Virus genome (UHGV): UHGV-0304565
DNA from: a virus
DNA length: 36,690 bases
Strand: one strand, 5' to 3'
Below the pieces are notes generated by a model that ran no database searches, was not told the origin of the DNA, and saw nothing but the letters and a program-made list of their open reading frames with translations. The translations under genes and the position numbers were made by a program. Positions 10,553 to 35,994 of this stretch are shown here, in pieces (the first letter of the stretch is position 1; every line of letters starts with the position of its first letter).

Positions 10553-10572
10553 ATAAGTAAGTGATTACTTAG
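10553..10572. promoter_or_regulatory. ATAAGTAA-family motif with inverted repeat (AGTAA-gtga-TTACT) in the divergent intergenic region
   Basis: Read directly; adjacent TATAAT at 10548-10553. Confidence 0.4.
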
Positions 10573-10589
10573 TGGATTGTAGCAATAAA

Positions 10590-11270
10590 ATGGATGTAAA
10601 AATCACGATTTTGCAGGTTGATGTTGTCAACCTTCGCCCGAATACCTGGAACACCAATTCGGTTGGTGCGCAGAATTTTGAAAAACTGAAAGGTTCTATC
10701 GAAAAATTGGGCTTTTTTAAGCCAATTTTGGCTCGTGAACTTGAAGATGGATTTTTTGAAATCCTCGGCGGCGAACATCGCTGGCGTGCTGCTATTGAGC
10801 AAGGAATTTCAACGGTTCCGGTGCTTTCTGTGGGCAAAATTAGCGATGTCGTGGCAAAACAGATGTCACTGGTGGACAACGAGCGATACGGTGAAGACGA
10901 CCAAATCGCATTGCAACGCTTCATTGAAGAAATTCAGTCAGAACTTGACTATCAACTGTCTGAAATCGCCCCGTATGACGACGAAATCTCGATGGTTTTA
11001 GCAAAAGAGGCGGCAATCGACCTTGAAGCACTGGAGGCGTTGTCTCGTGGTAGTGATGAGCCTGTCGATACCGACAAACGAGAGAAAACCGAACGTGTGG
11101 GTGCGGAACATCAGACCATGCGCTTCAAAGTAACTTTCGATGCGTCAGATCGTGTTGCAGAAACCATAAAAAACATCATCAAAGAGCAGGCTATTAACAC
11201 CGGTAATGAAATGGAGAACGCTGGTGAGGCTCTGGTGTGGCTGGTCGACTACTACAAGGAGCGTATGTAA
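10590..11270 (+). CDS. ParB/Srx-like N-terminal domain protein 1
   Basis: ILGGEHRWRAA resembles the ParB GERRxRA box. ORF track starts at GTG 10572; start uncertain. Confidence 0.6.
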   Translation: MDVKITILQVDVVNLRPNTWNTNSVGAQNFEKLKGSIEKLGFFKPILARELEDGFFEILGGEHRWRAAIEQGISTVPVLSVGKISDVVAKQMSLVDNERYGEDDQIALQRFIEEIQSELDYQLSEIAPYDDEISMVLAKEAAIDLEALEALSRGSDEPVDTDKREKTERVGAEHQTMRFKVTFDASDRVAETIKNIIKEQAINTGNEMENAGEALVWLVDYYKERM

Positions 11271-11938
11271 TGACCAAAAAGTTTGAAATCGTATATCGCG
11301 ACCCGGCAGATCTTATTCCCTATGAGATGAATGCCAAAAAGCATGATGAACAGCAGATCCGAGATCTGGCCGCAGCCATTAAAAAGCGCGGATTTGACCA
11401 GCCAATTACGGTCGATAAGAACGACGTAATTATTACTGGCCACGGCCGCCGTGAGGCTGCAATTTTTGCTGGACTTGAGCGCGTACCGGTTATTGTTCGC
11501 GATGATCTCAGTGATGACGAGGTTCGTGCGAAGCGCCTTGAAGATAACCGACTTGCCAGCATTGATTACGATGCAATTAAGCTACAGAAAGAGCTTGAGT
11601 CGCTTGTTCTGGACGATATCGAGGTTTTCGGCTTTGAAGAGCGTGAGTTGAATGTTCTCGTTGGCAGTATGACAGAAGAAATGGACACCGACTCGCTAGT
11701 TATCGATCTTGGCGAAGAAACTAAACGACAGAAGGATGAACACACCGAGATCAGTCGTGAAGTTGCAGCGGAAGAAGTACGTGTTGTCGACGTATTGGGC
11801 TTTAAAACGCTCCCTGCTGGCTCTGCCATTGTTGTTGGTGATTTGCTTGCCCATATGGAAGAAATGACGGGAGAAAGCGGGGTAGACGCATTTGTGGCAT
11901 ATGCGGAGAAGATCTCTTCCGGGGAGATGGCTGCATGA
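11270..11938 (+). CDS. ParB/Srx-like domain protein 2
   Basis: ITGHGRREAA motif; ATG overlaps the previous stop (TAATG); SD aaggag 9 nt upstream. Confidence 0.6.
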   Translation: MTKKFEIVYRDPADLIPYEMNAKKHDEQQIRDLAAAIKKRGFDQPITVDKNDVIITGHGRREAAIFAGLERVPVIVRDDLSDDEVRAKRLEDNRLASIDYDAIKLQKELESLVLDDIEVFGFEERELNVLVGSMTEEMDTDSLVIDLGEETKRQKDEHTEISREVAAEEVRVVDVLGFKTLPAGSAIVVGDLLAHMEEMTGESGVDAFVAYAEKISSGEMAA

Positions 11939-12573
11939 GCAAATACATCATCAACGTATCGTTTCAGACACGCGTAAATAAAACCACGCGCACGTTGGAA
12001 ATCGCTGAGTCGTTCGGGCTTGGCCTGGACGAAAAAGAGTGGACGCTTTACGACAATCTGGAGCTGGAAGTGAAGCAGGGCGATGTGGTGTACATCACCG
12101 GCCAATCCGGTTCCGGCAAATCCGTTGTGCTGCGCGAGTTGCAACGACAGATGAAGGATGAAGGGCTGTCTGTAGCCTCCATCGATGATTTTACCTTCGA
12201 TAATGAGGTTAACGTCATCGATCAGTTGGGCAAAACGACCAGTGATGCGCTTGGGTTGTTATCTATGGCTGGTCTGAACGATGCATATCTGTTTGTTCGC
12301 AAGCCTTCTGAAATGTCAGACGGCCAGAAATATCGTCTCAAGATTGCCAAACTGATTGAGTCAGGCGCTAAAGTATGGGCTGCTGACGAGTTCGGCGCTG
12401 TTCTAGACCGTGTAACCGCTCAGGTTGTGGCGTCTAACCTCCAGCGTGCCGCTCGAAAGGTTGGTGCGACGGTAATGGTGGCGACGACTCACGAAGACCT
12501 GAAGAACGCGCTGCGCCCGGATATGCAGATCACCAAGCACTACAAAGAACGCGTGAAGGTGGAATATGCCTGA
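11935..12573 (+). CDS. ABC-type ATPase (minimal nucleotide-binding domain, 212 aa)
   Basis: Walker A GQSGSGKS, signature-like SDGQKYRL, Walker B VWAADEF, H-loop ATTHED; ATGA overlap with the upstream gene. Confidence 0.7.
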   Translation: MSKYIINVSFQTRVNKTTRTLEIAESFGLGLDEKEWTLYDNLELEVKQGDVVYITGQSGSGKSVVLRELQRQMKDEGLSVASIDDFTFDNEVNVIDQLGKTTSDALGLLSMAGLNDAYLFVRKPSEMSDGQKYRLKIAKLIESGAKVWAADEFGAVLDRVTAQVVASNLQRAARKVGATVMVATTHEDLKNALRPDMQITKHYKERVKVEYA

Positions 12574-12820
12574 TTTGAAGATCGTAGAGCTGAAGCCATC
12601 GAAAGAGACTGATAACAACAACGTGGAAGTCATCCGCCTGCTGGAAGAAGCACTTCAGCACGCCAGAGAAGGAAAAAGCCAGAGCCTGGCGCTGTTGATG
12701 ATCAACAACGACGGCAGTGTTCTTGATTGCTGGCATAACGGCGGGCGCCCGTATGTCATGGTAGGGGCGATGGAGTCTCTTCGCCTGGATTTCATCAATG
12801 CCAATATCGAGCGCAGGTGA
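12566..12820 (+). CDS. Hypothetical protein (84 aa)
   Basis: Overlaps the ATPase stop; SD aaggtgg upstream. Confidence 0.55.
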   Translation: MPDLKIVELKPSKETDNNNVEVIRLLEEALQHAREGKSQSLALLMINNDGSVLDCWHNGGRPYVMVGAMESLRLDFINANIERR

Positions 12821-12825
12821 TCGAC

Positions 12826-13716
12826 ATGGCAGATATCATCATCAAACGCTACCGCCCTGAAGAGTTTCCGCGTCATCTGGACTTTCTGGAGCGAATGACT
12901 GTCACAAAGGGAACTGTAGAGGACTGGCACGCTCTTAAGTCGCTTCACTACAAAACAGACGGCAAACCTTTCGCGCCAACATACTATCGCTGCGAACTGG
13001 ATGACCGTCTGGTGGGCGTCGTGGTTATGGCTTACCCGAAACTTCTGCTGGCACCTCGCCATCGCATGTTTCCTAAGTTGAAACCAACCACCAATACCAC
13101 CGTGGCTAACCAGTACTGGGGCCGGTACGTGAATAACAACTTTGCGGTGATCAGCCGCTCAGTTGTGGATACTCAGTACCGTGGCGTAGGCGTCTCTTAT
13201 CGAATGATTAACCTGGTTAGCAGGATGCATGACCGGCCAATCATTGAGATCCAGTCATCGATGAGCAAATACAATCCCTTCGCCATGAAAGCAGGGTTTA
13301 AGTTCATCCGCCCTGAGCGACCGAAGAGCTATGAAAGTGCACTGCGTGTGTTCCAGCGCCATTTCCGCTCCGACCCGGGTGATAACGAGGCGATCGTCAA
13401 AGAGTTGTTCGCTATGAGCGAGTCTCGTCGTCGCCGTGCACTGCGTGATCTGGTGGCGGACTACCACAAAAACAGTTCCCTGGCAAAAGCTGGGCGGAAT
13501 CGTGGCACGACGATTCAGGACATTGCCGACAGTCTGGTGGACGAGGCCAGCATTGTGAAGCTGCTCAAGGACATTCACAACCTGAGCTTTACGTCTCCGT
13601 TGTATGGTGTGTATCGAAACCCTGACTTTGGTCGTCGACTGCCTGACACGCTGCCACTGCTGGCATTCGACAAACAACCTTTGGATAAACCGTTAGAAAT
13701 TGCTTTACCGGCATAA
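12826..13716 (+). CDS. GNAT-like acyltransferase-fold protein with C-terminal extension
   Basis: GNAT motif A-like QYRGVGVSYRMINLV and motif B-like NPFAMKAGFKF. ORF track starts at GTG 12817 overlapping the previous stop; ATG 12826 used. Confidence 0.5.
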   Translation: MADIIIKRYRPEEFPRHLDFLERMTVTKGTVEDWHALKSLHYKTDGKPFAPTYYRCELDDRLVGVVVMAYPKLLLAPRHRMFPKLKPTTNTTVANQYWGRYVNNNFAVISRSVVDTQYRGVGVSYRMINLVSRMHDRPIIEIQSSMSKYNPFAMKAGFKFIRPERPKSYESALRVFQRHFRSDPGDNEAIVKELFAMSESRRRRALRDLVADYHKNSSLAKAGRNRGTTIQDIADSLVDEASIVKLLKDIHNLSFTSPLYGVYRNPDFGRRLPDTLPLLAFDKQPLDKPLEIALPA

Positions 13717-13725
13717 GGATTTGCC

Positions 13726-13992
13726 ATGACGTTAACCGATAAACAAAAGGACATCATCAAAACGCTCAATCTCGGTTATGAGCGAGGTCATCTACTTGAC
13801 CTGGACGAATTGCTTGAAGTTTTGCCGTACAAGACAACCAAGCAAAGTATCCAGTTCTCAATTCGCGCTCTGATAAAAAAGGGGCTGGTGGAGAAAGGGC
13901 ATACGCGCCAACGCAGTGACAATCGCTATCACCGCCGAACTCTTGGGTTAACTACTTTAGGTCGAGCCAAAGCGAAGTTACTGGTGATGTAA
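13726..13992 (+). CDS. Small basic protein (88 aa), possible winged-helix DNA-binding regulator
   Basis: SD aagga 7 nt upstream; segment SIQFSIRALIKKGLVEKG resembles MarR/PadR-type recognition helices (pattern judgement). Confidence 0.45.
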   Translation: MTLTDKQKDIIKTLNLGYERGHLLDLDELLEVLPYKTTKQSIQFSIRALIKKGLVEKGHTRQRSDNRYHRRTLGLTTLGRAKAKLLVM

Positions 13993-14016
13993 TCGGTCTG
14001 GGAGCTTATTTAAAGA

Positions 14017-14071
14017 CCTGCTTCTGTATATATAAATAATAAGTAACTTATTAAATATATACGGAAGCAGG
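14017..14071. promoter_or_regulatory. Long near-perfect palindrome (about 18-bp arms) centred on AATAAGTAACTTATT
   Basis: Left arm cctgcttctgtatatata (14017-14034) against right arm tatatacggaagcagg (14056-14071), one mismatch. Confidence 0.5.
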
Positions 14072-14108
14072 CTTCGTAAGACATGCCAGACCTAATTAAA
14101 CACCCCAG

Positions 14109-14148
14109 AAAACAAGTTGGTTAGCAGATGCAGTAAACAAGTTGTTTT
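14109..14148. promoter_or_regulatory. Two tandem AAAACAA-G-TTGkTT palindromes upstream of the terminase genes
   Basis: Copies at 14109-14122 and 14134-14148, same family as the early-region operators. Confidence 0.45.
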
Positions 14149-14187
14149 AGAGCGCATGGACGCGCTCTGTGTGTTTTAGAGGGATCT

Positions 14188-14820
14188 ATGACGGTCGAAA
14201 AAGACGAGGTAAAAACTCGCCTGACACCAGCGGAGTGGGCCGAAGCTGAAGCCAAATGGACGTCAGGCGAATATACACTCTCAAAGCTGGAGGAAGAGTA
14301 CGGCATTCGTCGTGAAACACTCTCCAGACATTTCAAAAAGCGAGGATTAGAGAAAGGCGCGGACTCTGTTGGGAAGATGGTTCGTGAGTCTCTTAAATCT
14401 GACGCAGAGCTTCGCGCTAAAGCCCGTGCGGAAAAGATAGAAGAACGTCGTACACGTTATGACGGCTGGGCGTATGCGTTGGGGCAGATGGTGATGGTCG
14501 AAGTCACTACGGCCAAACGTGAGGGTAAGCCTTTAGGGGCGATTGAGGATTCTCTCAAGAGCTTACAGAGAGCCAGTAATACCCTTGCAAAATGCTTTGA
14601 AGTTTCGTCCAAAGCATTGGGCATGGATCATGCGGAAAATGACGAGGAAGAAATTCCGAACCTGGTATTTGGTGAGCTTACGCCTTCCCAGGTGGCGAAA
14701 TTACGTCAGGAAGACGACGAGCCTGAAATCATCGATGACGAATTGCTTGAGACGTTGGAAGAAGAAACTCTAAGCGAATTTGATGCGACAGATGATGGAA
14801 GTGAAGGGGAGGACGAATAA
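14188..14820 (+). CDS. terS: Terminase small subunit (putative)
   Basis: Position immediately upstream of terL with 1-nt stop/start overlap; N-terminal HTH-like segment; acidic C-terminus. Confidence 0.6.
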   Translation: MTVEKDEVKTRLTPAEWAEAEAKWTSGEYTLSKLEEEYGIRRETLSRHFKKRGLEKGADSVGKMVRESLKSDAELRAKARAEKIEERRTRYDGWAYALGQMVMVEVTTAKREGKPLGAIEDSLKSLQRASNTLAKCFEVSSKALGMDHAENDEEEIPNLVFGELTPSQVAKLRQEDDEPEIIDDELLETLEEETLSEFDATDDGSEGEDE

Positions 14821-16076
14821 TGGCAATCCCGTCCTCGCTCAGTCTTGTGCAACTGCATTCTGGACAGATGAAAGTCTTCCAGTCTCCGCATCGATTTAAA
14901 GTTGTTTGTGCTGGTCGACGCTGGGGAAAATCCCGGTTGTCGATCTCCACTATTATTCGTGCGGCGGCAAAGGAAAAAAAGCAAAGGGTCTGGTATGTCG
15001 CTCCTACTTACCAGATGGCTCGCCAGATTTTGTGGGACGATCTACAGGAAGTTCTGCCTCGTAAGTGGGTTAGGAAAAAGAACGACACCACGATGACAAT
15101 CGTGTTGAAGAACGGTTCGGAGATCGCCCTCAAAGGTGCTGATAAGCCTGACACTCTGCGCGGCGTAGCGTTGCATTTTGTAGTGCTTGATGAATTTCAG
15201 GATATGAAGGCTGACACCTGGTACAAGGTGTTACGACCTACTCTTTCATCGACACGCGGCGGTGCACTGATCATTGGTACGCCAAAAGGCTTCTCGGAAT
15301 TTCACAAACTGTGGACTATAGGCCAGAACGTAGAGCTGCAAAGAAAGGGACAGTGGAAGAGCTGGCAGTTTGTAACTGCCGATTCTCCGTTTGTGCCTAC
15401 GGCGGAAATTGAAGCTGCTAAGAACGATATGGACCCCAAATCGTTCGCTCAGGAGTACCTGGCCAGCTTTGAGAACATGTCCGGGCGCGTTTACTACCCG
15501 TTCGATCGTAACGTGCATGTAAAACCGCTTCAGTTCAACCCTCGGTTGCCTATATGGGTAGGGCAGGACTTCAACATTGACCCGATGTCTTCAGTAATTT
15601 TGCAACCTCAGCCAAATGGTGAGCTATGGGCAATTGATGAATTGGTGCTCTTTTCCTCTAACACGGCAGAAGTTTGTGATGAGCTTGAGAGACGCTTCTG
15701 GCGCTGGAAATCACAGGTAACGGTATTTCCAGATCCGGCAGGTGCTTATCGCCAACATGCTCGTGGGGAGTCTGACGTAGACATATTCAAAGAGAAGGGA
15801 TTCTTACGTGTCGATTATTCGAAAAAGCACCCGCCAATTGCGGATCGTGTTAATGCTGTTAACCGAATGCTGATGTCCGCATCTGGAGATATCCGGCTGT
15901 ATATCGATCCGAAGTGCAAGCATTTGATTGATTCACTGGAAAAAGTCATCTACAAGCCTGGAACACGAGATATGGATAAGACAGGTGGCATTGAGCATAG
16001 TGCAGACGCATTGGGCTATCCAGTACATCGTAGGTATCCAGTCAAAAACCGTGTTATTCTTGGTGGTTCTCGGTAG
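14820..16076 (+). CDS. terL: Terminase large subunit
   Basis: P-loop GRRWGKS, Walker B HFVVLDEF, C-terminal nuclease-like region; position before portal. Confidence 0.85.
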   Translation: MAIPSSLSLVQLHSGQMKVFQSPHRFKVVCAGRRWGKSRLSISTIIRAAAKEKKQRVWYVAPTYQMARQILWDDLQEVLPRKWVRKKNDTTMTIVLKNGSEIALKGADKPDTLRGVALHFVVLDEFQDMKADTWYKVLRPTLSSTRGGALIIGTPKGFSEFHKLWTIGQNVELQRKGQWKSWQFVTADSPFVPTAEIEAAKNDMDPKSFAQEYLASFENMSGRVYYPFDRNVHVKPLQFNPRLPIWVGQDFNIDPMSSVILQPQPNGELWAIDELVLFSSNTAEVCDELERRFWRWKSQVTVFPDPAGAYRQHARGESDVDIFKEKGFLRVDYSKKHPPIADRVNAVNRMLMSASGDIRLYIDPKCKHLIDSLEKVIYKPGTRDMDKTGGIEHSADALGYPVHRRYPVKNRVILGGSR

Positions 16077-16092
16077 GTAAGTAATTATCTAA
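16077..16092. promoter_or_regulatory. ATAAGTAA-family motif (GTAAGTAATTATCTAA) upstream of portal
   Basis: Read directly. Confidence 0.35.
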
Positions 16093-16102
16093 GGTTATTC
16101 AA

Positions 16103-17677
16103 ATGGAATTGAACGACAAACAAATTAAGGATCTGGTGGCGCGACGCCACCCGGAATACGAAAAGAAAAAAGAACATTGGGACTTCCTCGCCAGCACTTA
16201 CGCTGGCGGGCGTGGTTGGTTTACAGACAATATCTTTCGTTACTTTAAAGAGGGAGATCAGGAGTTTAAGGAGCGTGTTGAGCGTGCCTATCGCTTCAAC
16301 CACACCCGTGAGGTGGTAAACCTCATCAACAAATATCTCTTTAAAGAAGACATTCATAGAAATATCGAAGAGGCACCAGAGCAGATCCGCAATTTCTGGA
16401 AACGTGCGACTCGCCAGAATGCCTCTATTGACTCATTTATGGCCGCCATTGATTTGCAGTCGTCTATTTACGGTCGCATATGGGTTGTTGTCGATAGCAC
16501 GATGAGTGGTGATGTTGAGTCAGTAGCTGACGAGAAAAAGAAAGATGCTCGCGCCTACGCCTACTGGATTTCACCTCAGCAAATGCTGGATGTGGCATGG
16601 GACGACGACGGGAATATGTTGTGGGCGTTAATTGTGGAAGTCGCTCGTGATGACGCAGATCCTTTTACTTCTACAGGTCAGGAATACCAACGTTATCGTC
16701 TGTGGACACAAAACGAGTGGTATCTGTTCCGTGAGGAAGTGAAGAAGGGCGCTGGTGGAGCAGGTCGCCGTCAGGCAAAAGTTATTTTAGAGGATAGCGG
16801 TGAGCATAATCTCGGCGTAGTTCCTGTGTTTCCTGTTGATTGTATTGGAGAAAGTGAATCACCGTATTTCAGCCCATCGTTGATCGATGATATCGCTTAT
16901 CTTGATCGTGCGGTTGCAAACTATCTGTCAAACCTTGATGCCATTATTCAGGATCAGACATTTAGCCAGTTGGCTATACCGGTACAGTCGCTTTTACCTG
17001 GTGATGAAAACCACACTAAAGTGCTTGAAATGGGCACAAAGCGAGTCTTCACCTACGATTCTGAAGGTGGAAACCAGCCGTTTTATCTGTCACCAGACCC
17101 GAAACAAGCTCAGATGATCATCACTACGATTAAGACGGTGATTAACGAAATCTACCATTCAGTTGGTGTAGCTGGTGAGCGAACGAAGCAGGACAACGCA
17201 CAGGGAATCGATAATTCATCTGGTGCCGCAAAAATGTATGACTTCCAGCGTGTAAATAGCTTGCTTGTCACAAAAGCAGAGCGTCTGGAAAGGGCTGAAC
17301 GCCAAATCATGCTACTGGTTGCGAAATGGATGGGGGTAGATCTGGACGAAGACCACTCTTTAATTGCGTATCCAGAAAGTTTCGATATTCGTGGCCTTAC
17401 TGATGAATTTTCTGTTGCCGAGAAACTGTCATTACTTCAGGCACCGGACTCTGTACGTCGTCACCAGATGGAAATGCTTATTGAGAAGATTTTCCCGAAC
17501 ATTACTGAGGCGATGAAAAAGGAATTTGATAAAGATCTCTTGAATTTTCCTCCAAAAAATGATCTAAATACCCTTGAAAATAAGTCAGTACATACTTATG
17601 ATCGTGGTGCAGCCCAAGAAAGCGGGCAAGATCAACCCCGAGGGAATGGGGACTCATCTACTCAAGAGAACGAGTGA
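16103..17677 (+). CDS. Portal protein (putative)
   Basis: 524-aa protein directly downstream of terL and upstream of scaffold and capsid; call rests on size and synteny. Confidence 0.7.
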   Translation: MELNDKQIKDLVARRHPEYEKKKEHWDFLASTYAGGRGWFTDNIFRYFKEGDQEFKERVERAYRFNHTREVVNLINKYLFKEDIHRNIEEAPEQIRNFWKRATRQNASIDSFMAAIDLQSSIYGRIWVVVDSTMSGDVESVADEKKKDARAYAYWISPQQMLDVAWDDDGNMLWALIVEVARDDADPFTSTGQEYQRYRLWTQNEWYLFREEVKKGAGGAGRRQAKVILEDSGEHNLGVVPVFPVDCIGESESPYFSPSLIDDIAYLDRAVANYLSNLDAIIQDQTFSQLAIPVQSLLPGDENHTKVLEMGTKRVFTYDSEGGNQPFYLSPDPKQAQMIITTIKTVINEIYHSVGVAGERTKQDNAQGIDNSSGAAKMYDFQRVNSLLVTKAERLERAERQIMLLVAKWMGVDLDEDHSLIAYPESFDIRGLTDEFSVAEKLSLLQAPDSVRRHQMEMLIEKIFPNITEAMKKEFDKDLLNFPPKNDLNTLENKSVHTYDRGAAQESGQDQPRGNGDSSTQENE

Positions 17678-17698
17678 TAAGTAACAAAAGGAATTTTT

Positions 17699-18586
17699 AT
17701 GAATCTGTGGCAAATGCTTTTGGCCCGTCGTGGTCTGATGGATGTCGCTGAAGCGCATGAGCGTGGAGGCGCTGGCGGTGTAGCTGCTGATAATGAGCAG
17801 AGCACACAAGATCCTGACAAACAGGGTGAACAAAAAGAGCAGCCGAAGGGCGATGACGAATACGCTGGCATGACTCAGGAAGAGTTACTGGCCGAACTTC
17901 GTAAAACCAAGAAAGCTGGTGCTGAACTGCTGAAGGAGAACATGAAGCGCAAAGAGAAAGAGCGCACATTGGCCGATCAGCTTGCTCAGTACGGTGATAT
18001 CGACCCGGCGCGTGCTCGCCAGCTTTTAGAAGCTGAACAGGCCGCAGAAAATGCACGTCGTGAGGCGGAGCAAGCTGAACTGGAGCGTCGTGGTGAGTTC
18101 GATGCTGTTAAAAAACAGATGATCGAAGCACACCAGGCAGAGCTGGCACAGCGTGACGAACGTTATACAGCACTGGAAAGTGAAAACGCATCACTGAAAT
18201 CTCAATTAGTCGAGATGACCGTGGGCGCTTCCTTCAGTAACTCTCTCTTCCTACGTGACAAAGTTCTGATGACCCCGGCAAAAGCCCGCGTGATCTACGG
18301 TTCTCATTTTGAAGTGGGTGAAGACGGTAGCGTAGTGGGTTATGACAAACCGGCAGGTCATAAAGAACGAGCTGTTCTGGTTGACGGTGAAGGTAAGCCG
18401 TTGCCGTTTGAATCCGCGATTGAACGCATTGTGCGGGCAGATCCGGAAGCTGACGCATTGATGCGTAGCGAAGCCAAGCAGGGTGTAGGCTCACATTCCA
18501 AATCGACCTACATAATATCCCAACCGAAGAACAAGTCGACTATGGATAAGTTGGCCTCCGGTCTGGGGAAAATTGGACTTAAGTAA
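17699..18586 (+). CDS. Capsid scaffolding protein (putative)
   Basis: Charged, alanine/glutamate-rich helical sequence between portal and major capsid genes. Confidence 0.55.
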   Translation: MNLWQMLLARRGLMDVAEAHERGGAGGVAADNEQSTQDPDKQGEQKEQPKGDDEYAGMTQEELLAELRKTKKAGAELLKENMKRKEKERTLADQLAQYGDIDPARARQLLEAEQAAENARREAEQAELERRGEFDAVKKQMIEAHQAELAQRDERYTALESENASLKSQLVEMTVGASFSNSLFLRDKVLMTPAKARVIYGSHFEVGEDGSVVGYDKPAGHKERAVLVDGEGKPLPFESAIERIVRADPEADALMRSEAKQGVGSHSKSTYIISQPKNKSTMDKLASGLGKIGLK

Positions 18587-19487: not shown

Positions 19488-19497
19488 TCAGTGTGGT

Positions 19498-19513
19498 AGA
19501 TAAGTAATTATCT
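19498..19513. promoter_or_regulatory. Palindromic ATAAGTAA-family motif AGATAAGTAATTATCT
   Basis: Perfect 5-bp arms GATAA/TTATC with 4-bp spacer. Confidence 0.4.
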
Positions 19514-19520
19514 ATGTTTA

Positions 19521-19548
19521 AGGGTGGGCTATACGCCCACCCTTTTTG
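19521..19548 (+). terminator. Intrinsic terminator after the major capsid gene
   Basis: Stem agggtgggc / gcccaccct, loop tatac, T5 run. Confidence 0.75.
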
Positions 19549-19560
19549 TAGGAGCAAGAA

Positions 19561-22682: not shown

Positions 22683-23066
22683 GTGTTTATTGAAGCGTTT
22701 GCAAGTTTGATGCAGAAGGCAAAGATTGGCACGGTCGGGACTGACATTTTCTGTCACTACTTGCCTGCCAATGTGAAATCTGGCGTCCTGCTTATTAACC
22801 CAAATACCGGTATTAGCATCGATCATGAGCTACAGGGCTTTTATCTCGAATCATTCACAATCATTGTGCGTGGTTCGTCAATTACTACGACGGTTGAGAA
22901 AGCCAATAAAATCATTGAGATGTTTCCAGTAGAGGAAACGGAATCTGGTGGTGTTTATTTTCGACTTGTACGACCGATGGCGATGCCAATCATTTATCCC
23001 AAAAATGATGGGGCATTAATAGAAGCAGGCATTCCTGTTGAATTTGCTGGCTATTTATTGAATTAA
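22683..23066 (+). CDS. Tail terminator-like protein (putative, lambda U position)
   Basis: ORF track 22560..23066 overlaps the upstream gene by 120 nt; GTG 22683 (SD gagagg) or ATG 22710 are more plausible starts. Confidence 0.4.
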   Translation: MFIEAFASLMQKAKIGTVGTDIFCHYLPANVKSGVLLINPNTGISIDHELQGFYLESFTIIVRGSSITTTVEKANKIIEMFPVEETESGGVYFRLVRPMAMPIIYPKNDGALIEAGIPVEFAGYLLN

Positions 23067-23073
23067 CTCAATT

Positions 23074-23091
23074 AGTAAGTATATACTTACT
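23074..23091. promoter_or_regulatory. Perfect 18-bp palindrome AGTAAGTATATACTTACT (ATAAGTAA family)
   Basis: Read directly; 50 nt upstream of the major tail gene start. Confidence 0.4.
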
Positions 23092-23140
23092 ATTAGCGCA
23101 ATGAATGCGTAGAATTAACGGAAAAAGGAGTTTTCCATCA

Positions 23141-29567: not shown

Positions 29568-29575
29568 GTATCTGG

Positions 29576-29596
29576 ATAAGTAAGTACTAATTTAAT
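29576..29596. promoter_or_regulatory. ATAAGTAAGTACTAATTTAAT motif (late-region family)
   Basis: 15 of 19 positions match 35929-35949. Confidence 0.4.
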
Positions 29597-29649
29597 ATTA
29601 TTGTGGCGCTGACAGGATGTTAGCGCCTACTTATTTCAAGGATGAAACA

Positions 29650-30348
29650 ATGGGAATAAAAGCTGATATTCAGAGCTTATCTCCCTCTGCACTCATTGAG
29701 TTGTTCGTACTGGATATGTCGAACACAACTTCAGGGGGGAAGCTATTCTTCCACGCCGGAACAAACGAACTGATGCAACCGGTTGTCTGGCAAGGAGTGA
29801 CATACGAGCCGTGGCCAATCAAAGCATCAGGCTTTGACAAAACGGGTCAGGGAACGTTACCACGTCCAAAAATTCAGGTATCGAACTTTGCCGGAACCGT
29901 CTCTGCGGAAGTTCAGGCAAACGACGATCTTGTTGGCTGCCGCATTATTCGCAAGATGACGCTGGCTCGCTTCCTCGATGCCGTTAATTTTAAAGATGGC
30001 AACCCAACAGCAGATCCAAACCAACATTTCCCGGATGAAATGTGGTTTATCGAACAGAAAACTCTCGAAACTCATCAGGTTGTCGAGTTTGAATTGTCCA
30101 GTGTGTTCGATTTGATGGGGGTGCAACTGCCGTATCGTCAGATCATTAAAAACACCTGCCCGTGGAAATACCGAGGGCCAGAATGCGGCTATACCGGCCC
30201 ATATTTCGACAAAAATAACCAGCAGACGTCTATGTCTGGTGCTGATTACTGCACAAAACGTTATGACGCCTGTAATGCGCGTCGGAATTATTTTGCCAAC
30301 GGAGTGATCCATTTTGGCGGATTTATTGGAGCTACGCGGTATGGGTAA
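29650..30348 (+). CDS. L: Minor tail protein L
   Basis: ARFLDAVNF, WQG, CGYTGP and FGGF segments match lambda L; ATG 29650 with SD aagga preferred over track start 29617. Confidence 0.8.
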   Translation: MGIKADIQSLSPSALIELFVLDMSNTTSGGKLFFHAGTNELMQPVVWQGVTYEPWPIKASGFDKTGQGTLPRPKIQVSNFAGTVSAEVQANDDLVGCRIIRKMTLARFLDAVNFKDGNPTADPNQHFPDEMWFIEQKTLETHQVVEFELSSVFDLMGVQLPYRQIIKNTCPWKYRGPECGYTGPYFDKNNQQTSMSGADYCTKRYDACNARRNYFANGVIHFGGFIGATRYG

Positions 30349-31138
30349 TAAAGCAATCCCTGAGCTTGGCTCTGACGTTATGCAGCAAATCTATCTCTGC
30401 GCCATAAATCGCTACCCTAATGAAGCGTGTGGCTTTCTGGTTAGAACTAATGGCGACAAATATCGCTTTATGGAAGCGCGGAATGTTTCGGAGAACCCGC
30501 AGAACACTTTTGTAATGCACGTTGACGACATTATGGCGGCAGAGGATGCGGGTGATGTTATCGCAATCTGGCATTCACATACTGATGAATCAGCAGAAGC
30601 ATCTGATGCCGATCGTGCAGGCTGCGAAGCGACGGAAGTTCCGTGGATGATTCTGGCTATTCGCAAGAATGTTGAGGGAGATGCCCCTTTCCATTTTAGC
30701 GAGATGAATGTGATCACACCTGATGGTTTCGAAATGCCATACCTGGGCAGACCGTATGTATTTGGCGTATTCGATTGCTGGATGTTGTGTCGGGACTATT
30801 TGAAGCGTGAGTTTAACGTCGAACTAAACCCGAACGCACACCTGCATATTCCATCGTGGTACACCGGCGATAACGACATTCTCGACCAGAACTACCGAAA
30901 CGAAGGATTGGTACGGCTTGCGCCCGGAACAGAGCCTCAACGTGGGGACATCTTCTTTATCCAATACGGGAAAATGCCTGACCACTGCGCGGTTTATATC
31001 GGCGATGGAATGATTCTTCATCACCAGATCGACCGCCTTAGTTGTCGTGCTTATTACGGCGGAATGTATCAGAAACATACGACGCATCACTTGCGTCACA
31101 GAGACTTGCTCAAGGGAGATGAGACGTGTCTGAGTTAG
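30341..31138 (+). CDS. K: Tail tip assembly protein K-like (MPN/JAMM plus NlpC/P60 domains)
   Basis: JAMM motif WHSHTDESAEASDAD; C-terminal Cys/His-containing region consistent with NlpC/P60. Start ATG 30341 or TTG 30314. Confidence 0.75.
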   Translation: MGNKAIPELGSDVMQQIYLCAINRYPNEACGFLVRTNGDKYRFMEARNVSENPQNTFVMHVDDIMAAEDAGDVIAIWHSHTDESAEASDADRAGCEATEVPWMILAIRKNVEGDAPFHFSEMNVITPDGFEMPYLGRPYVFGVFDCWMLCRDYLKREFNVELNPNAHLHIPSWYTGDNDILDQNYRNEGLVRLAPGTEPQRGDIFFIQYGKMPDHCAVYIGDGMILHHQIDRLSCRAYYGGMYQKHTTHHLRHRDLLKGDETCLS

Positions 31139-31719
31139 TTCATGTGCAGCTTGGCGGCCCTATGGCCAAACATTTTGGCCGCCACTGGCATCTAAAGGTG
31201 CGTAATACAAAACAGGCTCTGGATTTAATTGAGGCTAACAAGCCTGGGTTTAAAGCATGGATGAAGCGCAACATCAAAACCTATGACAGATACCACATCC
31301 AGATCACCAATAAACAGGGTCACAAGTGGTCTGTGGACGAGAGTGAATATCAGATGATGGGGCAGTCTGACAACATTGCCAAAATACGCATTACCCCTGT
31401 TCCGCGAGGGAGCGGCGGATCTGCTTTTGGGTGGTTTCAGACGGTAGTAGGGGCCGCTTTGTTGGTTGTATCGGCGGTAATGATGCCTGCTTTAGCACCT
31501 CTCGGTTTGTCACTGATGATGGGCGGTATATCACAAATCATATCGCCGCAAGCCACTAACGAAAGTGTGAGGCAAGCGGATAATTCGAACTCATATTATT
31601 TCGACGGCCCTCAAAATACAGAAAACCAGGGAAACCCAGTACAACTTATCTACGGCGAGGAAATTCTGGTTGGCTCACAGGTTGTGAGTTCTTCAATCAC
31701 GATTGACCAGCTAATGTAA
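31126..31719 (+). CDS. I: Tail assembly protein I-like
   Basis: GTG start with SD gggag, overlaps the end of K; position between K and J; hydrophobic segment mid-protein. Confidence 0.6.
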   Translation: MSELVHVQLGGPMAKHFGRHWHLKVRNTKQALDLIEANKPGFKAWMKRNIKTYDRYHIQITNKQGHKWSVDESEYQMMGQSDNIAKIRITPVPRGSGGSAFGWFQTVVGAALLVVSAVMMPALAPLGLSLMMGGISQIISPQATNESVRQADNSNSYYFDGPQNTENQGNPVQLIYGEEILVGSQVVSSSITIDQLM

Positions 31720-31737
31720 ACAAGGATTTTTTTGAAC

Positions 31738-34700
31738 ATGGAACAGTTCAAGAAGAAAAAGTTACCGCTGTTTATTGCCGGTGCGGGTGGTAAAAAAAGC
31801 AGCAAAAGCTCTAGCCGTACACCGGTTGAAGCCGACGATACCGTAAATTCTCGTGCAATGGCCGCTATCCTCGATCTTCTTGGGGAAGGTGTAATTGGCG
31901 GCTTGGTAAATGGCGCAAGATCTATTTTTATCGACGATCTGCCGATTGTAAATGAAGACGGTTCCTCCAACTTCAGCGGAATCACATGGGATTTTCGCGA
32001 CGGTTCGCAAGACCAGACTCCAATGTCTGGCTTTGATTTTGTCGAAACGCCTAAATCCGTCAATATCCAGTTAAAAAAAACACATTATGTAACGGTTTCA
32101 ATCGATAACGATGAAGCTGATCGGGTTCGTGTCATCATGAAGTTTCCTTCTTTGCGAAGCATAGATAAAAAAACTGGTGACACGAACGGTACAACCGTTG
32201 AGTACAAGTTCCAGATAGCAAATGGCGACTCAACATTTGTAGATGTGGTCGCAGAAGGTGAAAAAAGCGTTGGCATTAAGCTAACTGCAAAGAAGACAGG
32301 TGTTTATTACCGTAGCTATGAGCTGAAGCTGTCTAAGCCTGGACGCGCGTACAAGGTTCGTGTAGTCCGTATTACCGATGATAACAGCAGCCAGTATCTC
32401 TATAACGATACATGGGTGGACTCAATAGGTGAGATTGTAGATACACCGATGAACTACCCAAACTCTGTGCTGGTGGGGCTGAAGGTTAATTCTGAGCAAT
32501 TTGGTAGCACCATGCCATCTCGTTCGTATTTGGTGCGTGGATTAAAAATTCGCGTGCCGTCAAACTACAACGAGGCCAGCAACACTTATGATGGTGTATG
32601 GGATGGCACTTTTAAGCTGTTGTCTTCTTCAAACCCTGCGTGGATTCTCTTTGATTTGCTTACCAATGCTCGATATGGCCTTGGTCAGTATGTGTCGGAA
32701 TCTATGATTGACCTCGGCCAGCTATACCAGATCGGTCGATATTGTGACGAAGAGGTTGATGATGGCTTTGGTGGTAAAGAGAAACGCTTTGCAATCAATA
32801 CGCAGATCACCAGTCGACAGGACGCATACCGATTAATTCAGGATATTGCCGGTGCATTCCGCGGTATGGTGTTTTGGGCTGGTGGCATGGTTAACATCAT
32901 GCAGGATAGTCCATCAGATCCGGTAATGATGTTTACCAACTCCAACGTCAAAGATGGACTGTTTACCTATAAAGGTTCTGCGCGTAAAGATCGCCCATCC
33001 GTTGCGCTCGTAACCTACAACAACAAGGAGGACGGTTATAAGCAAAACATCGAGTACGTTGAAGATCAGGACGCAATGCGCCGTTATGGTGAGCGTAAAA
33101 CAGAAGTCGTAGCATTTGGATGTACAAGCCGAGGCCAGGCTCACCGAGTTGGTTTGTGGCTTTTGTATACCGCCAGAATGGAGTCGGATGTAATTACATT
33201 TACTGCCGGTTTAGACGCCTCATTTCTGATGCCCGGTGAAACCGTTCTGATTCAGAACAAATATCGTGCAGGTAAACGTAACTCCGGTCGAATTGTGGAG
33301 TTTACCAAAAACAGCATCACTCTCGATGCGCCTGTGTCGTTAGCTAAAAGCGGCAGCTTTATTCGGATATTGAATCAGGAAGGCAAAATCGTTGAACGCG
33401 ATGTTCTTGAAACTGGCGAAAACATAACAAAGGTTACGTTTTCAAAAGCTCTGTCGTCAGCGGAAACGCCTGTTTTGAACGGTGTCTGGACAATTACAGA
33501 ACCAGATCTCGAACCTATGCGCGTTCGCATCGTTAACATCGCGCAGGGGGAAACGCCGGGTAGCTTTGACATCACCGCTGTTGAGAACAATCCGTCTAAA
33601 TATGAGGCGATTGACAATGGTGCAACGCTTATCCCGCAGAATACGACGGTATTGGACCCGACTTACTCCAAGCCGTCTAATTTGCAAATCACCGAAGGGA
33701 CTTATCTCTCAAGCCCAGGCAACCTGTCAGTAAAACTGACTGCAACATGGGAAGGGAAATCTCCAGAGTATTGGATCAGTTGGCGACGTTCTGATGAAAA
33801 CAATGTATCGAACTGGCAATCGGCGCGTGTAACCGAAGAGCAATACGAAATCGTTAATGTTGCGGAGAATGGACGCTACGACTTCCAGCTGTATGCGGTT
33901 TCATTCAACGGTAAAAAAACAGAGATTATCAGTACCGTTTATCAGGTGCTGGGCACAATGACACCGCCAGATGCTCCAACGTCATTAACGGCCGTTGGAG
34001 ACTATCGTAATGTGATACTGAATTGGGTTAATCCAGATTCGGTAGACCTTGATCACATTAATGTTTACGCATCCCAGACCAACAATCTGGATACAGCGAA
34101 ACTGATCGCAGAGTCTGCAAGCACCACCTTTACACATGCTGGTCTTGGGGATAGCGAAACGTGGTATTACTGGGTTCGAGCATCGAACAAGCGAGGTATG
34201 TTAAGTCCTCCGAACTCAAACTTGGGGACAGAGGCGACAACTCGCGATGTACTGTCGTTCCTGACAGGCAAAATTACGTCTTCTGAACTTGGCCAGGCTT
34301 TACTTGAGGAAATCGACTCAAAAGTATCTCAGGAGGCGGTGGATTCCATCTATGAACAGATGGATGAAAGTCTGAAAAGCCTTGATGACAAGTTTACAGA
34401 GACAGATCGGCGGCTTGAAGAAGCTCAAAACGATCTTAAAACGGATGTTTCCAGTACTGTAAGCAAGGTGGAAGACGCTCTTAAGGAAGTTGAAAACTCT
34501 AACGCTGCTTTAATTCAGTTGCAGGAAACTGTATCAGAGCAGGGCAAAGCTGTAGCTGGAGCTGTTGAGGCGGCAAATGCAGCACTTGACAATTCATCGG
34601 CTTTAATCGCGGAGGAACGTGAAGCACGAGTTGAGGGTGACTTGGCAAACGCGAAAGAAATTGAGGCGATGAAGTCAACTGTAGATAGCAGTTTAGCCAC

Positions 34701-35898
34701 CATTGAAGAAATGAAAAAAACCGTGGCTGAAGTTGAGCGTTCCAGTGCCGAAGTGACAACAAACATTGAGGCATTGGCTAAAACAAACATCGATCTTGCT
34801 TTGCGTCAGGATGAAGATCAGCACAAGCAGATGGTGAGTAATGCGAAGATCACCACAACTCAGAAGGCTTTTGCAGACGATATATCTGCAATGGCTACGA
34901 AAATGGAAGAAATTCGCGCTGAAATAAATGAGGATATCAGAGCTTCAATCACTGAAGAAACAACGGCTCGTGTAGATGCTGATAATGCTATTGCAAGCAG
35001 AATCACCAAACTTGAATCAAAGATTAACGATGATATTTCTGCCGCAATTGTGAGTGAACAAGAGGCACGAGCTAGTGCCGATGAAGCACTTTCAAAAGAA
35101 ATACTATCGTTACAAGCCAAAATTGAAGGCGATATTAGTGCAGCTATATCTGAAGAAAAAATTGCCCGAGCAACTGCTGATGAATCTTTAGCACAACAGA
35201 TAACCACATTGAAGAGCCAGACGGGTAAAGATATTAAGGCGGCTGTAGCAGAAGAGACGAAAGCCAGAACTGACGCTGATTCGGCTTTGGCTTCTAGTAT
35301 CACTAATCTACAGGCGCAAACGAGCAAAGATATTAATGCCGCGATTACGTCTGAGGCGACTGTGCGCACAAACGCCGACAATGCTCTAAGTGGACGAATT
35401 GACACCTTAAAAGCATCAGTTGATGGAAATACAGCGACAATTCAAGAGCAGGCAACTGCTATTGCTGATACTAACAAAAAGGTTTCAACCGCGTGGACGT
35501 TGAAGATGGAAACGTCAACAAGTGGTGGGCAAAAATATGTCGCAGGTATTGCGCTTGGAATTGACACCACGGGGCTTTCCCAGTTTTTGGTGCAAGCAGA
35601 TCGATTTGGTCTAGTCAACTCAGTTAACGGAAAGATCACCACACCATTTGTTATCGAAAACAGCGTTGCATACATGAATGGTGCGTATATTAAGGATGGT
35701 ACTATCACAAATGCAAAGGTAGGTGACTTGCAATCAACAAACTTCGTAAGCGGACGAGCCGGATGGCGATTTGGTAAAAATGGAACGCTTGAGATCAACG
35801 GCAATAGTGGCGGCAATGGGAGATTGGTTATAAATGGTCAGAGGATTGACGTTTATGATGACAATAATGTCCTTCGAGTTAGGATTGGTCAGCTTTGA
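31738..35898 (+). CDS. J: Host specificity protein J (central tail fibre/tip attachment protein)
   Basis: Multiple segments match lambda J (YPN..LVG..V.SEQFGS, VPSNYN, WDGTFK, AFGCTSRGQAHR.GLWL, KITxSxLGxxLLE, YVAGIxL...LSQFLV). Contains a long coiled-coil insert and lacks the lambda C-terminal domain. Confidence 0.9.
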   Translation: MEQFKKKKLPLFIAGAGGKKSSKSSSRTPVEADDTVNSRAMAAILDLLGEGVIGGLVNGARSIFIDDLPIVNEDGSSNFSGITWDFRDGSQDQTPMSGFDFVETPKSVNIQLKKTHYVTVSIDNDEADRVRVIMKFPSLRSIDKKTGDTNGTTVEYKFQIANGDSTFVDVVAEGEKSVGIKLTAKKTGVYYRSYELKLSKPGRAYKVRVVRITDDNSSQYLYNDTWVDSIGEIVDTPMNYPNSVLVGLKVNSEQFGSTMPSRSYLVRGLKIRVPSNYNEASNTYDGVWDGTFKLLSSSNPAWILFDLLTNARYGLGQYVSESMIDLGQLYQIGRYCDEEVDDGFGGKEKRFAINTQITSRQDAYRLIQDIAGAFRGMVFWAGGMVNIMQDSPSDPVMMFTNSNVKDGLFTYKGSARKDRPSVALVTYNNKEDGYKQNIEYVEDQDAMRRYGERKTEVVAFGCTSRGQAHRVGLWLLYTARMESDVITFTAGLDASFLMPGETVLIQNKYRAGKRNSGRIVEFTKNSITLDAPVSLAKSGSFIRILNQEGKIVERDVLETGENITKVTFSKALSSAETPVLNGVWTITEPDLEPMRVRIVNIAQGETPGSFDITAVENNPSKYEAIDNGATLIPQNTTVLDPTYSKPSNLQITEGTYLSSPGNLSVKLTATWEGKSPEYWISWRRSDENNVSNWQSARVTEEQYEIVNVAENGRYDFQLYAVSFNGKKTEIISTVYQVLGTMTPPDAPTSLTAVGDYRNVILNWVNPDSVDLDHINVYASQTNNLDTAKLIAESASTTFTHAGLGDSETWYYWVRASNKRGMLSPPNSNLGTEATTRDVLSFLTGKITSSELGQALLEEIDSKVSQEAVDSIYEQMDESLKSLDDKFTETDRRLEEAQNDLKTDVSSTVSKVEDALKEVENSNAALIQLQETVSEQGKAVAGAVEAANAALDNSSALIAEEREARVEGDLANAKEIEAMKSTVDSSLATIEEMKKTVAEVERSSAEVTTNIEALAKTNIDLALRQDEDQHKQMVSNAKITTTQKAFADDISAMATKMEEIRAEINEDIRASITEETTARVDADNAIASRITKLESKINDDISAAIVSEQEARASADEALSKEILSLQAKIEGDISAAISEEKIARATADESLAQQITTLKSQTGKDIKAAVAEETKARTDADSALASSITNLQAQTSKDINAAITSEATVRTNADNALSGRIDTLKASVDGNTATIQEQATAIADTNKKVSTAWTLKMETSTSGGQKYVAGIALGIDTTGLSQFLVQADRFGLVNSVNGKITTPFVIENSVAYMNGAYIKDGTITNAKVGDLQSTNFVSGRAGWRFGKNGTLEINGNSGGNGRLVINGQRIDVYDDNNVLRVRIGQL
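34924..35418 (+). repeat. Five tandem ~99-bp (33-aa) repeats inside J
   Basis: Protein repeats of the pattern DI.AAI..E...R..AD.AL...I..L.A... Confidence 0.65.
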
Positions 35899-35928
35899 TT
35901 GTGGAAAAAAATAATCATTTCTGTAAAA

Positions 35929-35994
35929 ATAGGTAGGTACTAACTTAATGGTGGGCATGGAACGCCCACCATATCTAGGAGCAAAGGATAAATG
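35929..35994 (+). promoter_or_regulatory. Late regulatory module: ATAGGTAGGTACTAACTTAAT motif, GC hairpin (35950-35970), SD aggag, ATG
   Basis: Same architecture as 19498-19563 (motif, GGTGGGC/GCCCACC hairpin, TAGGAGCAA SD). Confidence 0.45.

Follow-up and report, generated by a model that had tools for sequence, protein, structure and literature searches.

What is the short sequence that recurs between the genes of the virus genome UHGV-0304565, and is it tied to the late genes near which it was first noticed? In the 36,690-nt stretch of this genome that was analysed (the window), an initial annotation had described a ATAAGTAA-centred motif with local dyad symmetry in intergenic gaps of the late, structural region and had read it as a late-promoter or late-regulator recognition element. 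We find that ATAAGTAA is the left arm of a longer, imperfect palindrome whose recurrence is real and strongly non-random, and that this palindrome is very probably a site at which some protein binds duplex DNA. Of the role originally proposed, recognition by a regulator is the most plausible part, whereas neither the restriction to late genes nor the function as a promoter was upheld. The window is part of an SSU5-like phage-plasmid, a type with genomes of ~105-110 kb, and is 99% identical to Escherichia phage CMS-2020a, 96-98.5% to phage Cyrano and ~81% to Salmonella phage SSU5. Cyrano is the pLF82 phage-plasmid of E. coli LF82, and its complete genome is near-identical to the window. Phage-plasmids of this kind are widespread: a single 10-kb piece of the window matches 822 PLSDB plasmid records from Klebsiella, Escherichia, Enterobacter, Yersinia and Salmonella. 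In the searchable literature, we found no description of the ATAAGTAA palindrome or of the regulatory circuitry of the SSU5 family and pHCM2.

Exact ATAAGTAA occurs five times in the window, always on the + strand (10553, 14039, 17677, 19500 and 29576), against a shuffle expectation of 1.02, and a count of five was reached in 1 of 100 shuffles. In complete Cyrano, where ATAAGTAA is the commonest intergenic 8-mer, 20 of the 22 exact copies are intergenic, and their flanks revealed a longer common sequence. A 27-nt weight matrix was built from these copies and flanks and used to scan the window, Cyrano and SSU5. The consensus, ATGATA[A/G]GTAAGT·ACTTAC[T/C]TATCAT (the dot marks the centre of symmetry), is a palindrome of 18-26 bp whose symmetry extends ~13 bp to either side of the central GT·AC; in the window's lineage, the arm reads (TGA)TA[A/G]GTAAGT. 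The usual site combines one near-perfect arm with a degenerate one, and a single common register replaces the several dyad registers drawn originally. Weight-matrix sites number 34 in Cyrano, compared to ~1 in shuffles, and 32 in SSU5; the window has 10, of which 9 score at least 15 bits against 0.02 in shuffles, confirming that a ATAAGTAA-type element with dyad symmetry recurs in intergenic gaps. The simpler pattern TARGTA-N6-TACYTA, with at most one mismatch, matches the window five times where 0.07 matches are expected. The 16.6 kb of intergenic DNA in Cyrano contain 30 sites, and shuffling this DNA itself with first- and third-order Markov models yields 0.15-0.19; the 94 kb of coding DNA contain just 3. 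Chance or base composition as the origin of the motif is thus excluded by shuffles of the whole window, the whole genome and the intergenic DNA alone. In all, complete Cyrano carries ~27-30 copies of the palindrome, nearly all intergenic, and the window carries eight clear copies and a doubtful one (14027-14053).

To place the copies, the window is best read against Cyrano. Positions 1-14054 correspond to the final ~15 kb of that genome and contain, besides small early genes, a UvsW-like helicase and a FljA-like repressor in a leftward operon and, in a rightward one, two ParB-like proteins and two ABC ATPases. From 14055 onward, the window follows Cyrano from its position 1 through terS, terL, portal, scaffold-like, major capsid protein, head-tail and major tail protein genes to the tape measure, the tail tip genes M, L, K, I and J, and the tail fibre. 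Where the UvsW-like helicase operon (- strand) diverges from the parB-like operon (+ strand), the gap harbors TAAGTAAGT·GATTACTTA (10548-10574, 23.7 bits), an exact match to TARGTA-N6-TACYTA that is adjoined by TATAAT-like hexamers on both strands. This position is occupied by a copy in every lineage examined, including the divergent lineages L071, L076, L078 and L081 described below. The 26-nt gap between the TerL and portal genes is filled by TAGGTAAGT·AATTATCTA (16071-16097, 24.1 bits), a conserved island in an alignment of 47 sequences, with the TerL stop codon in its left arm and its right arm overlapping the portal Shine-Dalgarno sequence. A copy within the portal gene, at its 3' end, TAAGTCAGT·ACATACTTA (17575-17601, 24.0 bits), sits exactly in the spacer of TTGAAA-17-TATGAT (17574-17602), the best sigma-70-like match of the window (10/12), which is directed toward the scaffold-like and major capsid genes; this geometry is preserved in SSU5 and in L052, L055, L076 and L078. 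The initial annotation had missed this copy and had instead listed 17677-17684, a ATAAGTAA on the + strand after the portal stop codon. We do not count the latter as a family member: it has neither a second arm nor an extended match, gave no match at 8 bits or more in the weight-matrix scan, and is part of a string of stop codons that follows the portal gene.

Further downstream, TAGATAAGT·AATTATCTA (19494-19520, 26.5 bits) is located between the major capsid gene and an intrinsic terminator and adjoins both; in a 37-sequence alignment of this gap, the outer hexamers are conserved, while the flanks and the distance to the terminator vary. The copy 5' of the major tail gene, TTAGTAAGT·ATATACTTA (23069-23095, 21.6 bits), is highly conserved among 45 sequences and overlaps the sigma-70-like match TTGAAT-18-TATACT (23058-23087); its inner part, 23074-23091, is indeed the perfect 18-bp palindrome that had been reported. 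The gap separating tail genes M and L holds TAAGTAAGT·ACTAATTTA (29574-29600, 26.9 bits), which overlaps the sigma-70-like match TGGATA-17-TATTAT (29573-29601), and between the tail J and tail-fibre genes lies a copy that reads TAGGTAGGT·ACTAACTTA on the + strand (35924-35950, 25.7 bits), with orthologues at Cyrano 22457 and SSU5 21946. The likeness of these last two copies had been understated, as 29576-29596 and 35929-35949 share 18 of 21 positions rather than 15 of 19. An additional copy, ATTGTAAGT·ACATACTTA (3520-3546, 14.8 bits), has orthologues at Cyrano 96695 and SSU5 93174, lies downstream of a terminator-like hairpin and overlaps the sigma-70-like match TTGTAA-17-TAAAAT (3527-3555) of our promoter scan. 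It resides in the early region, from which the motif had been thought absent. The sequences quoted in the initial annotation are all present in the window, but its statement that all sites lie within ~60 nt upstream of a start codon fails for 14038-14052, which is ~150 nt from the next start codon and proved to be the centre of a different, ~57-bp palindrome. A weak weight-matrix match at 4810-4836 is probably false.

Genome-wide maps of Cyrano and SSU5 rule out a late-specific element. In both complete genomes, the structural and lysis module holds just ~7 of the ~27 good sites, the remainder preceding genes for helicase/primase, ligase, cobalamin-related enzymes, SSB, RecA-like protein, SbcCD, RNR, ThyX and methylase/methyltransferase as well as parB-like genes. 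The copies occupy the short spacers that separate co-directional gene blocks, as well as the promoter region from which uvsW and parB diverge. Several come within 12-28 nt of the start codon that follows or overlap the Shine-Dalgarno sequence belonging to it, as in the TerL/portal gap. At the entry to the late operon, 5' of terS, are a terminator-like hairpin and another palindrome, AAACAAnTTGTTT, from which the present motif is distinct, as had been proposed. Genes that are reported to be active in the Cyrano lysogen include toxin-antitoxins, CYRAN_43 and CYRAN_117 (PMC9928086), and the lysogen-expressed genes (toxin-antitoxins, CYRAN_43 and others) mostly have no copy next to them. The integrase/repressor module of Cyrano (42575-42825), which is outside the window and missing from SSU5, contains the copy CTGGTAAGT·GCTTACCGA, with an exact core of the SlmA-binding type considered below, ~38 nt upstream of the repressor start, and two more isolated GGTAAG half-sites in the same region. 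Because ~30 copies span the whole genome, the palindrome seems to be where a DNA-binding regulator docks, not a promoter of late genes.

Copies were also present at orthologous gaps in SSU5 and ~80 related contigs. We aligned four gaps (capsid/Ig-like, TerL/portal, Tc1/major tail and tail M/L; 8 to 47 distinct sequences each), and in these alignments the palindrome stands out as a conserved island amid a spacer of varying sequence, at varying distances from the hairpin that follows. More distant relatives from IMG/VR, with major capsid proteins 82-85% identical, have copies at the same gaps with altered inner bases: TAGGTAGnn in L071, TA[A/G]GTATnn in L076 and L078, and TA[T/A]GTA[A/T]nT in L081, a site of the last type reading TATGTAAAT·ACATACATA. 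Since the inner bases differ between lineages, the family-wide core is TA[A/G]GTA-N6-TAC[C/T]TA. L081 is 99% identical to Klebsiella plasmids and L071 is found in Enterobacter/Cronobacter; Klebsiella phage ST13-OXA48phi12.3 has the canonical site TAAGTAAGT·ACTTACCTA. A distant relative, IMGVR_UViG_2713896750_000003 (103 kb; loci L114, L131 and L140), has a major capsid protein 48%, a portal protein 54% and a ParB-like protein 41% identical and gave no PLSDB match; in it, at least four copies of the identical 18-mer TAAGTAAGTAC[T/A]TACTTA are found, partly at different gene junctions. An exact-pattern scan also returned the identical 18-mer from unrelated viral contigs (L089, L134, L148 and L159), within (TAAG)n/(CTTA)n palindromes, where it pairs with a second TAAGTAAGTAG...TACTTACTTA element ~2.1 kb off, as if flanking a small cassette.

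A palindrome in transcribed gaps near ribosome-binding sites could in principle fold in a polycistronic mRNA and serve processing, stability or translational control, and the window does encode, at 7375-7896, a FljA-like protein, of a family that acts on a 5' untranslated region. The substitution pattern argues otherwise. Arm-to-arm mismatches on the transcribed strand are 50 G.T versus 50 A.C, and Watson-Crick pairing within a site (of 9 positions) is not above that of arms swapped between sites, with 5.96 against 6.23±0.19 in Cyrano and 7.00 against 6.84±0.17 in SSU5. Copies occur in both orientations, and an Rfam search of the window gave no match. By comparison, true hairpins in the neighbourhood do show compensatory changes, which are clean in the stem at 23096-23110, demonstrating that the approach detects RNA structure where it is present. 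We therefore rejected the RNA hairpin, which we rate as exceedingly improbable. As the arms vary independently and show no compensatory pairing, the palindrome appears to be read as double-stranded DNA by a symmetric, dimeric protein.

Regarding promoter signatures, neither a fixed -35 nor a directional -10 element was found at the palindrome copies of Cyrano and SSU5. The hexamer TAnnnT occurs at the palindrome edge in both directions, in 13 versus 10 of 23 cases in Cyrano and 13 versus 14 of 21 in SSU5, and is a symmetric extension of the palindrome itself. No other hexamer offset is enriched toward the genes, the offset used in phage P1 scoring 2 versus 2. Besides the promoter at 17574-17602, TTGAAA-17-TATCAT surrounds a copy at Cyrano 57455 and SSU5 55704, and the matches overlapping the copies at 3520, 23069 and 29574 are weaker; overall, matches of this kind are rarer than in shuffles. 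A self-contained sigma-70 promoter was therefore rejected, given that the best fits are mostly weak and change register between sites and that no directional -10/-35 is seen. A register varying from site to site suits an operator placed to occlude RNA polymerase, not a fixed promoter element.

Our preferred reading, to which we give roughly even credence, is that the copies are dispersed operator or roadblock sites of a probably phage-encoded, symmetric DNA-binding protein. According to this model, a dimer or dimer-of-dimers would bind the palindrome as double-stranded DNA. At copies that overlap a sigma-70 promoter, the protein would occlude RNA polymerase by covering the spacer at 17574-17602, the -10 element at 23058-23087, the -35 element together with the spacer at 29573-29601, and the two core promoters at 10548-10574. 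At copies that separate a stop codon from the ribosome-binding site of the following gene, it might instead act as a roadblock to read-through, and the joint effect would be that lytic genes, whether for replication, recombination or the virion, stay quiet as long as the phage is a plasmid prophage. Such an arrangement may work like those of C1 operators in P1, stoperators in mycobacteriophage L5 and KorB operators in RK2, in which one protein serves many sites on a large mobile genome. The palindrome is nonetheless no member of these systems, as sequence, symmetry and protein all differ. C1 operators likewise are scattered in many copies over a ~100 kb plasmid prophage, where several overlap the sigma-70 promoter of a lytic gene. 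In contrast to the palindrome, they consist of an asymmetric 17-mer, ATTGCTCTAATAAATTT, and are not found before virion genes, which in P1 have Lpa promoters; a C1 homologue was not detected at E ≤1 by tblastn, and the best phmmer hit had E = 0.75. The stoperators of L5 and other cluster A phages are asymmetric 13-mers that keep a fixed orientation to transcription and are bound by the immunity repressor. They resemble the present sites in number (~25-30 copies), in their position in short gaps throughout the genome, including the structural operon, often by stop or start codons, and in the genome-wide silencing, through a block to transcription, proposed for them, but differ in that our sites are symmetric and, among co-directional genes of Cyrano, lie in both orientations (17 + and 17 -). 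A conserved regulon of ~30 sites offers a handle on the silencing and switching of ~100 kb of co-directional lytic genes, and the palindrome could be used as bait for finding the master regulator and as a sequence signature for recognising members of the family.

Several other explanations account for part of these observations. The copies might be recombination linkers or module boundaries, or a by-product of stop-rich, AT-rich spacers, given that they are confined to spacers and that the palindrome holds stop codons in two frames per strand, with the stop codon of the upstream gene often inside it. However, the points at which homology of the window to SSU5 or Cyrano breaks off are 450-3400 nt from the nearest copy (artificial record ends excepted), which leaves a linker role unsupported, and a by-product of spacer composition is at odds with the enrichment over intergenic-only shuffles, third-order Markov included, and with the conservation of a symmetric 18-26 bp consensus across genera; we consider this explanation scarcely credible. 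More specific is the proposal that the copies are activator-dependent middle or late promoters of the P1 type, in which a phage activator binds an inverted repeat upstream of the -10 element and recruits the RNA polymerase of the host; this comes near the idea of the initial annotation. The annotated record of P1, itself a phage-plasmid, gives its late promoters as AAGT(G/T)ACTT-N4-TAnnnT, and the inner 8 bp of our palindrome, AAGTACTT, are truly alike; TAnnnT (TATCAT/TATGAT) abuts the palindrome in about half of the copies, most copies are without a -35 element, and copies precede lytic genes, being mostly missing from genes expressed in the lysogen. Moreover, just upstream of terS is encoded a winged-helix-like protein of 88 aa (13726-13992; weak Sta1/Lrs14 match, E = 0.003), reminiscent of lpa/pacA in P1. 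The details, in contrast, do not fit. The -22 boxes of P1 read AAGTGACTT or AAGTTACTT, a 9-bp AAGTnACTT, whereas here the repeat spans 8 bp, lacks the central base and is embedded in an 18-26 bp palindrome, and its distance to the hexamer differs too. The edge hexamer is equal on both sides, without an enriched P1-like offset toward transcription; recognisable promoters sit in differing registers; several copies are just 12-28 nt away from the ribosome-binding site or start codon of the next gene or overlap it; and copies extend beyond the late genes. A search for an Lpa homologue in Cyrano, SSU5 and the window (tblastn and phmmer) gave none, the best E values being 0.024-0.67 and the protein with 0.024 being absent from SSU5. 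On the grounds of spacing, directionality and the missing Lpa homologue, we set the P1-type promoter aside as improbable.

The remaining two proposals name a different binder. Dispersed palindromes could be loading or binding sites of a CTPase clamp of the ParB/Noc/KorB type, encoded at 10596-11270 and acting in partition, condensation or long-range silencing. Consistent with this notion, two ParB_N proteins are encoded, with Spo0J/ParB/Noc matches and a GGEHRWRAA motif, the most universal copy lies in the promoter region of their genes, and ParB-like protein 1 is most divergent (44-47% identity) where the motif is most altered. KorB of RK2 uses many dispersed palindromic operators and Noc of B. 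subtilis does likewise (its consensus is quoted in PMC3020112), their numbers ranging from a dozen to several dozen. Yet the half-sites of ParB, Noc and KorB are contiguous with a conserved centre, whereas here outer hexamers are conserved around a variable 6 bp, and the distant relative keeps the same palindrome although its ParB-like protein is just 41% identical. Proteins with ParB-like nuclease domains are, furthermore, common beside the terminase genes of phages that have no such sites, which counts against a clamp as well; we rate it as quite improbable. The host protein SlmA deserves closer attention, although we think it unlikely that the copies are SlmA-binding sequences (SBS), present at ~50 times the chromosomal density, through which SlmA represses lytic promoters or ties the amount of phage-plasmid DNA to inhibition of the FtsZ ring. 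The SBS consensus is GTGAGTACTCAC, in which half-site positions 1, 2, 4 and 5 must be G, T, A and G, position 3 may be either purine (G to A, Kd ~60 nM vs ~50 nM) and position 6 either pyrimidine (PMC3020112). The phage core GTAAGT·ACTTAC obeys every one of these rules, and the flanks fit too: the 24-mer 'SBS consensus' AAGTAAGTGAGCGCTCACTTACGT and the natural site SBS17, GTTAGTGACCATTTACTTAC, of which one arm reads GTAAGTAAAT (PMC4423959; PMC4117426), share TAAGTRAGY·RCTYACTTA, which equals the phage 18-mer at all non-degenerate positions, published degeneracies taken into account. Both kinds of site are palindromes, and the SBS is read by a dimer-of-dimers. SlmA represses a promoter that has an SBS between its -35 and -10 elements (PMC3573117), a geometry as at 17574-17602, the sites of ST13-OXA48phi12.3 have perfect SBS cores, and the identical palindrome persists in the distant relative. 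E. coli, for comparison, has just 24-52 SBS per 4.6 Mb. Against SlmA, the strict pattern GTRAGNNCTYAC (12-bp core GTRAGY·RCTYAC) finds 0 sites in the window, 1 in Cyrano and 3 in SSU5, and allowing one mismatch yields only ~2 times the shuffle count. About half of the arms have G at the SBS-conserved A (TAGGTA). From the three published sequences, we ourselves take AGT-N8-ACT with TAA/TTA flanks to be the most conserved SBS residues; the AGT...ACT triplets occur on both arms at just 3 window sites, and TAAGT-N8-ACTTA matches 2 times in the window, 4 in Cyrano and 5 in SSU5 versus 0.07-0.10 in shuffles, most copies having one such arm only. Natural SBS12 and SBS17 are similarly degenerate (PMC4423959; PMC4117426), and most phage sites have one perfect arm. 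In L081 (Klebsiella) and L071 (Enterobacter/Cronobacter), whose hosts have SlmA, the inner bases break SBS positions 4 and 5, so that within Klebsiella the same SlmA would face the canonical site of ST13-OXA48phi12.3 and the TA[T/A]GTA[A/T]nT of L081. Finally, chromosomal SBS are mostly intragenic and avoid promoters (PMC3020112), unlike the phage sites. It is a possible but minority prospect that SSU5-type phage-plasmids (of E. coli, pHCM2-like in Salmonella, of Klebsiella and pMT1-like in Yersinia) carry 25-30 SBS look-alikes and co-opt SlmA. If so, the host would supply, in SlmA, a repressor or roadblock for lytic promoters; alternatively, the activation of SlmA and the division block would scale with phage-plasmid DNA, being modest at ~5 copies in the lysogen and massive in lytic replication. 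To our knowledge, a functional likeness of this kind would make these phage-plasmids the first mobile elements exploiting host nucleoid occlusion through DNA sites.

Because the half-site differs between lineages living in the same host genus, most clearly between the two Klebsiella-borne ones, the binder under the operator reading is most likely phage-encoded and co-evolving with its sites. Several observations weigh against that reading. Most copies have no recognisable promoter, making the roadblock role a conjecture. Four late-region copies stand directly upstream of hairpins, which is not the usual order of a terminator followed by a promoter. The putative Cyrano repressor CYRAN_45 has no homologue in SSU5, which keeps the sites, so a classic immunity repressor is not the binder. 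The distant relative, with the same palindrome but a capsid protein 48% and a ParB-like protein 41% identical, speaks for a conserved host factor more than for a phage protein that co-evolves with its sites. The same genomic distribution would also be expected of an activator as of a repressor. CYRAN_45 was dropped for its absence from SSU5, and the FljA-like repressor (7375-7896) because it varies between 60% and 100% identity among phages with the same motif. The phage-plasmid was not found to encode a homologue of C1 or Lpa of P1 or of SlmA of E. coli. A candidate binder by position is the ParB/Noc-like protein 1 (10596-11270, + strand; Pfam ParB_N, E = 4.5e-13), the first gene after the most universally conserved copy, which matches Spo0J, ParB and Noc structures and whose GGEHRWRAA is GxxRxxA-like. 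It is the fastest-diverging protein of its neighbourhood, being 44-47% identical in L076/L078, compared to 81-82% for TerL and 76-82% for the ABC ATPases; in the comparison of L071, L076, L078 and L081, TerS and the 88-aa protein also diverge fast. Other candidates are ParB-like protein 2 (Pfam ParB_N), the 88-aa protein itself (13726-13992), with its weak winged-helix signal, and a 92-aa protein (8667-8945) whose Cyrano counterpart CYRAN_117 is listed as lysogen-expressed (PMC9928086). Co-variation with the motif did not identify the binder, as ParB-like proteins 1 and 2, the 88-aa protein and TerS all just track overall divergence, and the distant contig with the same motif did not discriminate among them. 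No single candidate stands out computationally.

The hairpins that accompany four late-region copies are GC-rich and begin within 2-20 nt downstream, with folding energies from -5.5 to -19.6 kcal/mol. Among them, 19520-19547 (+ strand, GGGTGGGC...GCCCACCC followed by TTTTT, -19.6 kcal/mol) is the only clear intrinsic terminator and is nearly invariant in the alignment. The hairpins at 29603-29629 (-17.0 kcal/mol) and 35948-35972 (-16.8 kcal/mol, without a T-run) lie 3' of the copies at 29574-29600 and 35924-35950, respectively. In the major tail gene leader, the small hairpin (23096-23110, + strand, -5.5 kcal/mol) varies in relatives as GCGCA/TGCGT, GCACC/GGTGC, GTGTC/GACAC and CCGCA/TGCGG, which points to a functional RNA structure upstream of the conserved ribosome-binding site GGAAAAAGGAG. 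Elsewhere in the genome, hairpins stand upstream of copies instead. Since the order is thus reversed and the spacing is variable in relatives, we treat the hairpins as neighbours of the palindrome and not as one unit with it.

The ~57-bp palindrome CCTGCTTCTGTATATA...TATATACGGAAGCAGG (14016-14072) is a different element, whose AT-rich centre (14027-14053) scores 19.8 bits and is at best a doubtful member of the motif family. It occurs three times per genome, at 31184, 78108 and 108366 in Cyrano and at 33482, 78328 and 103273 in SSU5, one copy being 3' of the parA operon, and would fold as a single strand with -28.8 kcal/mol. The public records of both Cyrano and SSU5 begin at its right edge (window 14054/55). 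The element could be of a packaging, centromere or origin type.

A second palindrome family, GAAAACAAnTTGTTT(TC), gave 17 matches against 0.72 expected, with copies at 83-99, 134-150, 1450-1464, 2641-2655, 3125-3141, 4027-4043, 4791-4807, 8918-8934, 14108-14122 and 14133-14149. It is found mostly in the early region, within 55-nt repeats resembling a promoter plus leader. Two copies directly precede terS, with the terminator-like hairpin 14148-14169 after them, which is why the entry to the late operon may be under the control of this second palindrome. Its sequence resembles CAAGTTGTAA in the Salmonella fliC leader, which we take to be the target of FljA. The FljA-like repressor of the window (7375-7896, - strand; Pfam Flag1_repress, E = 1e-68) probably belongs with this other palindrome, AAACAAnTTGTTT. 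Among phage-plasmids whose capsid genes are 95-98% identical (L163-L224), the repressor is 60-100% identical, a pattern suggestive of an exchangeable immunity determinant.

Among other repeats, a recurrent translation-start context, AAGGAAAAACACATG, appears in intergenic Cyrano DNA (for example, upstream of 59105, 57498 and 84682) and at 17685-17701 of the window. AAACACAT is present in 11 and AACACATG in 10 intergenic segments of Cyrano. The early region of the window, lastly, contains iteron-like arrays at 1506-1593 and 4650-4743, each composed of three copies of a 28-31-nt direct repeat, ACAACCAACCTC...CAGGC.

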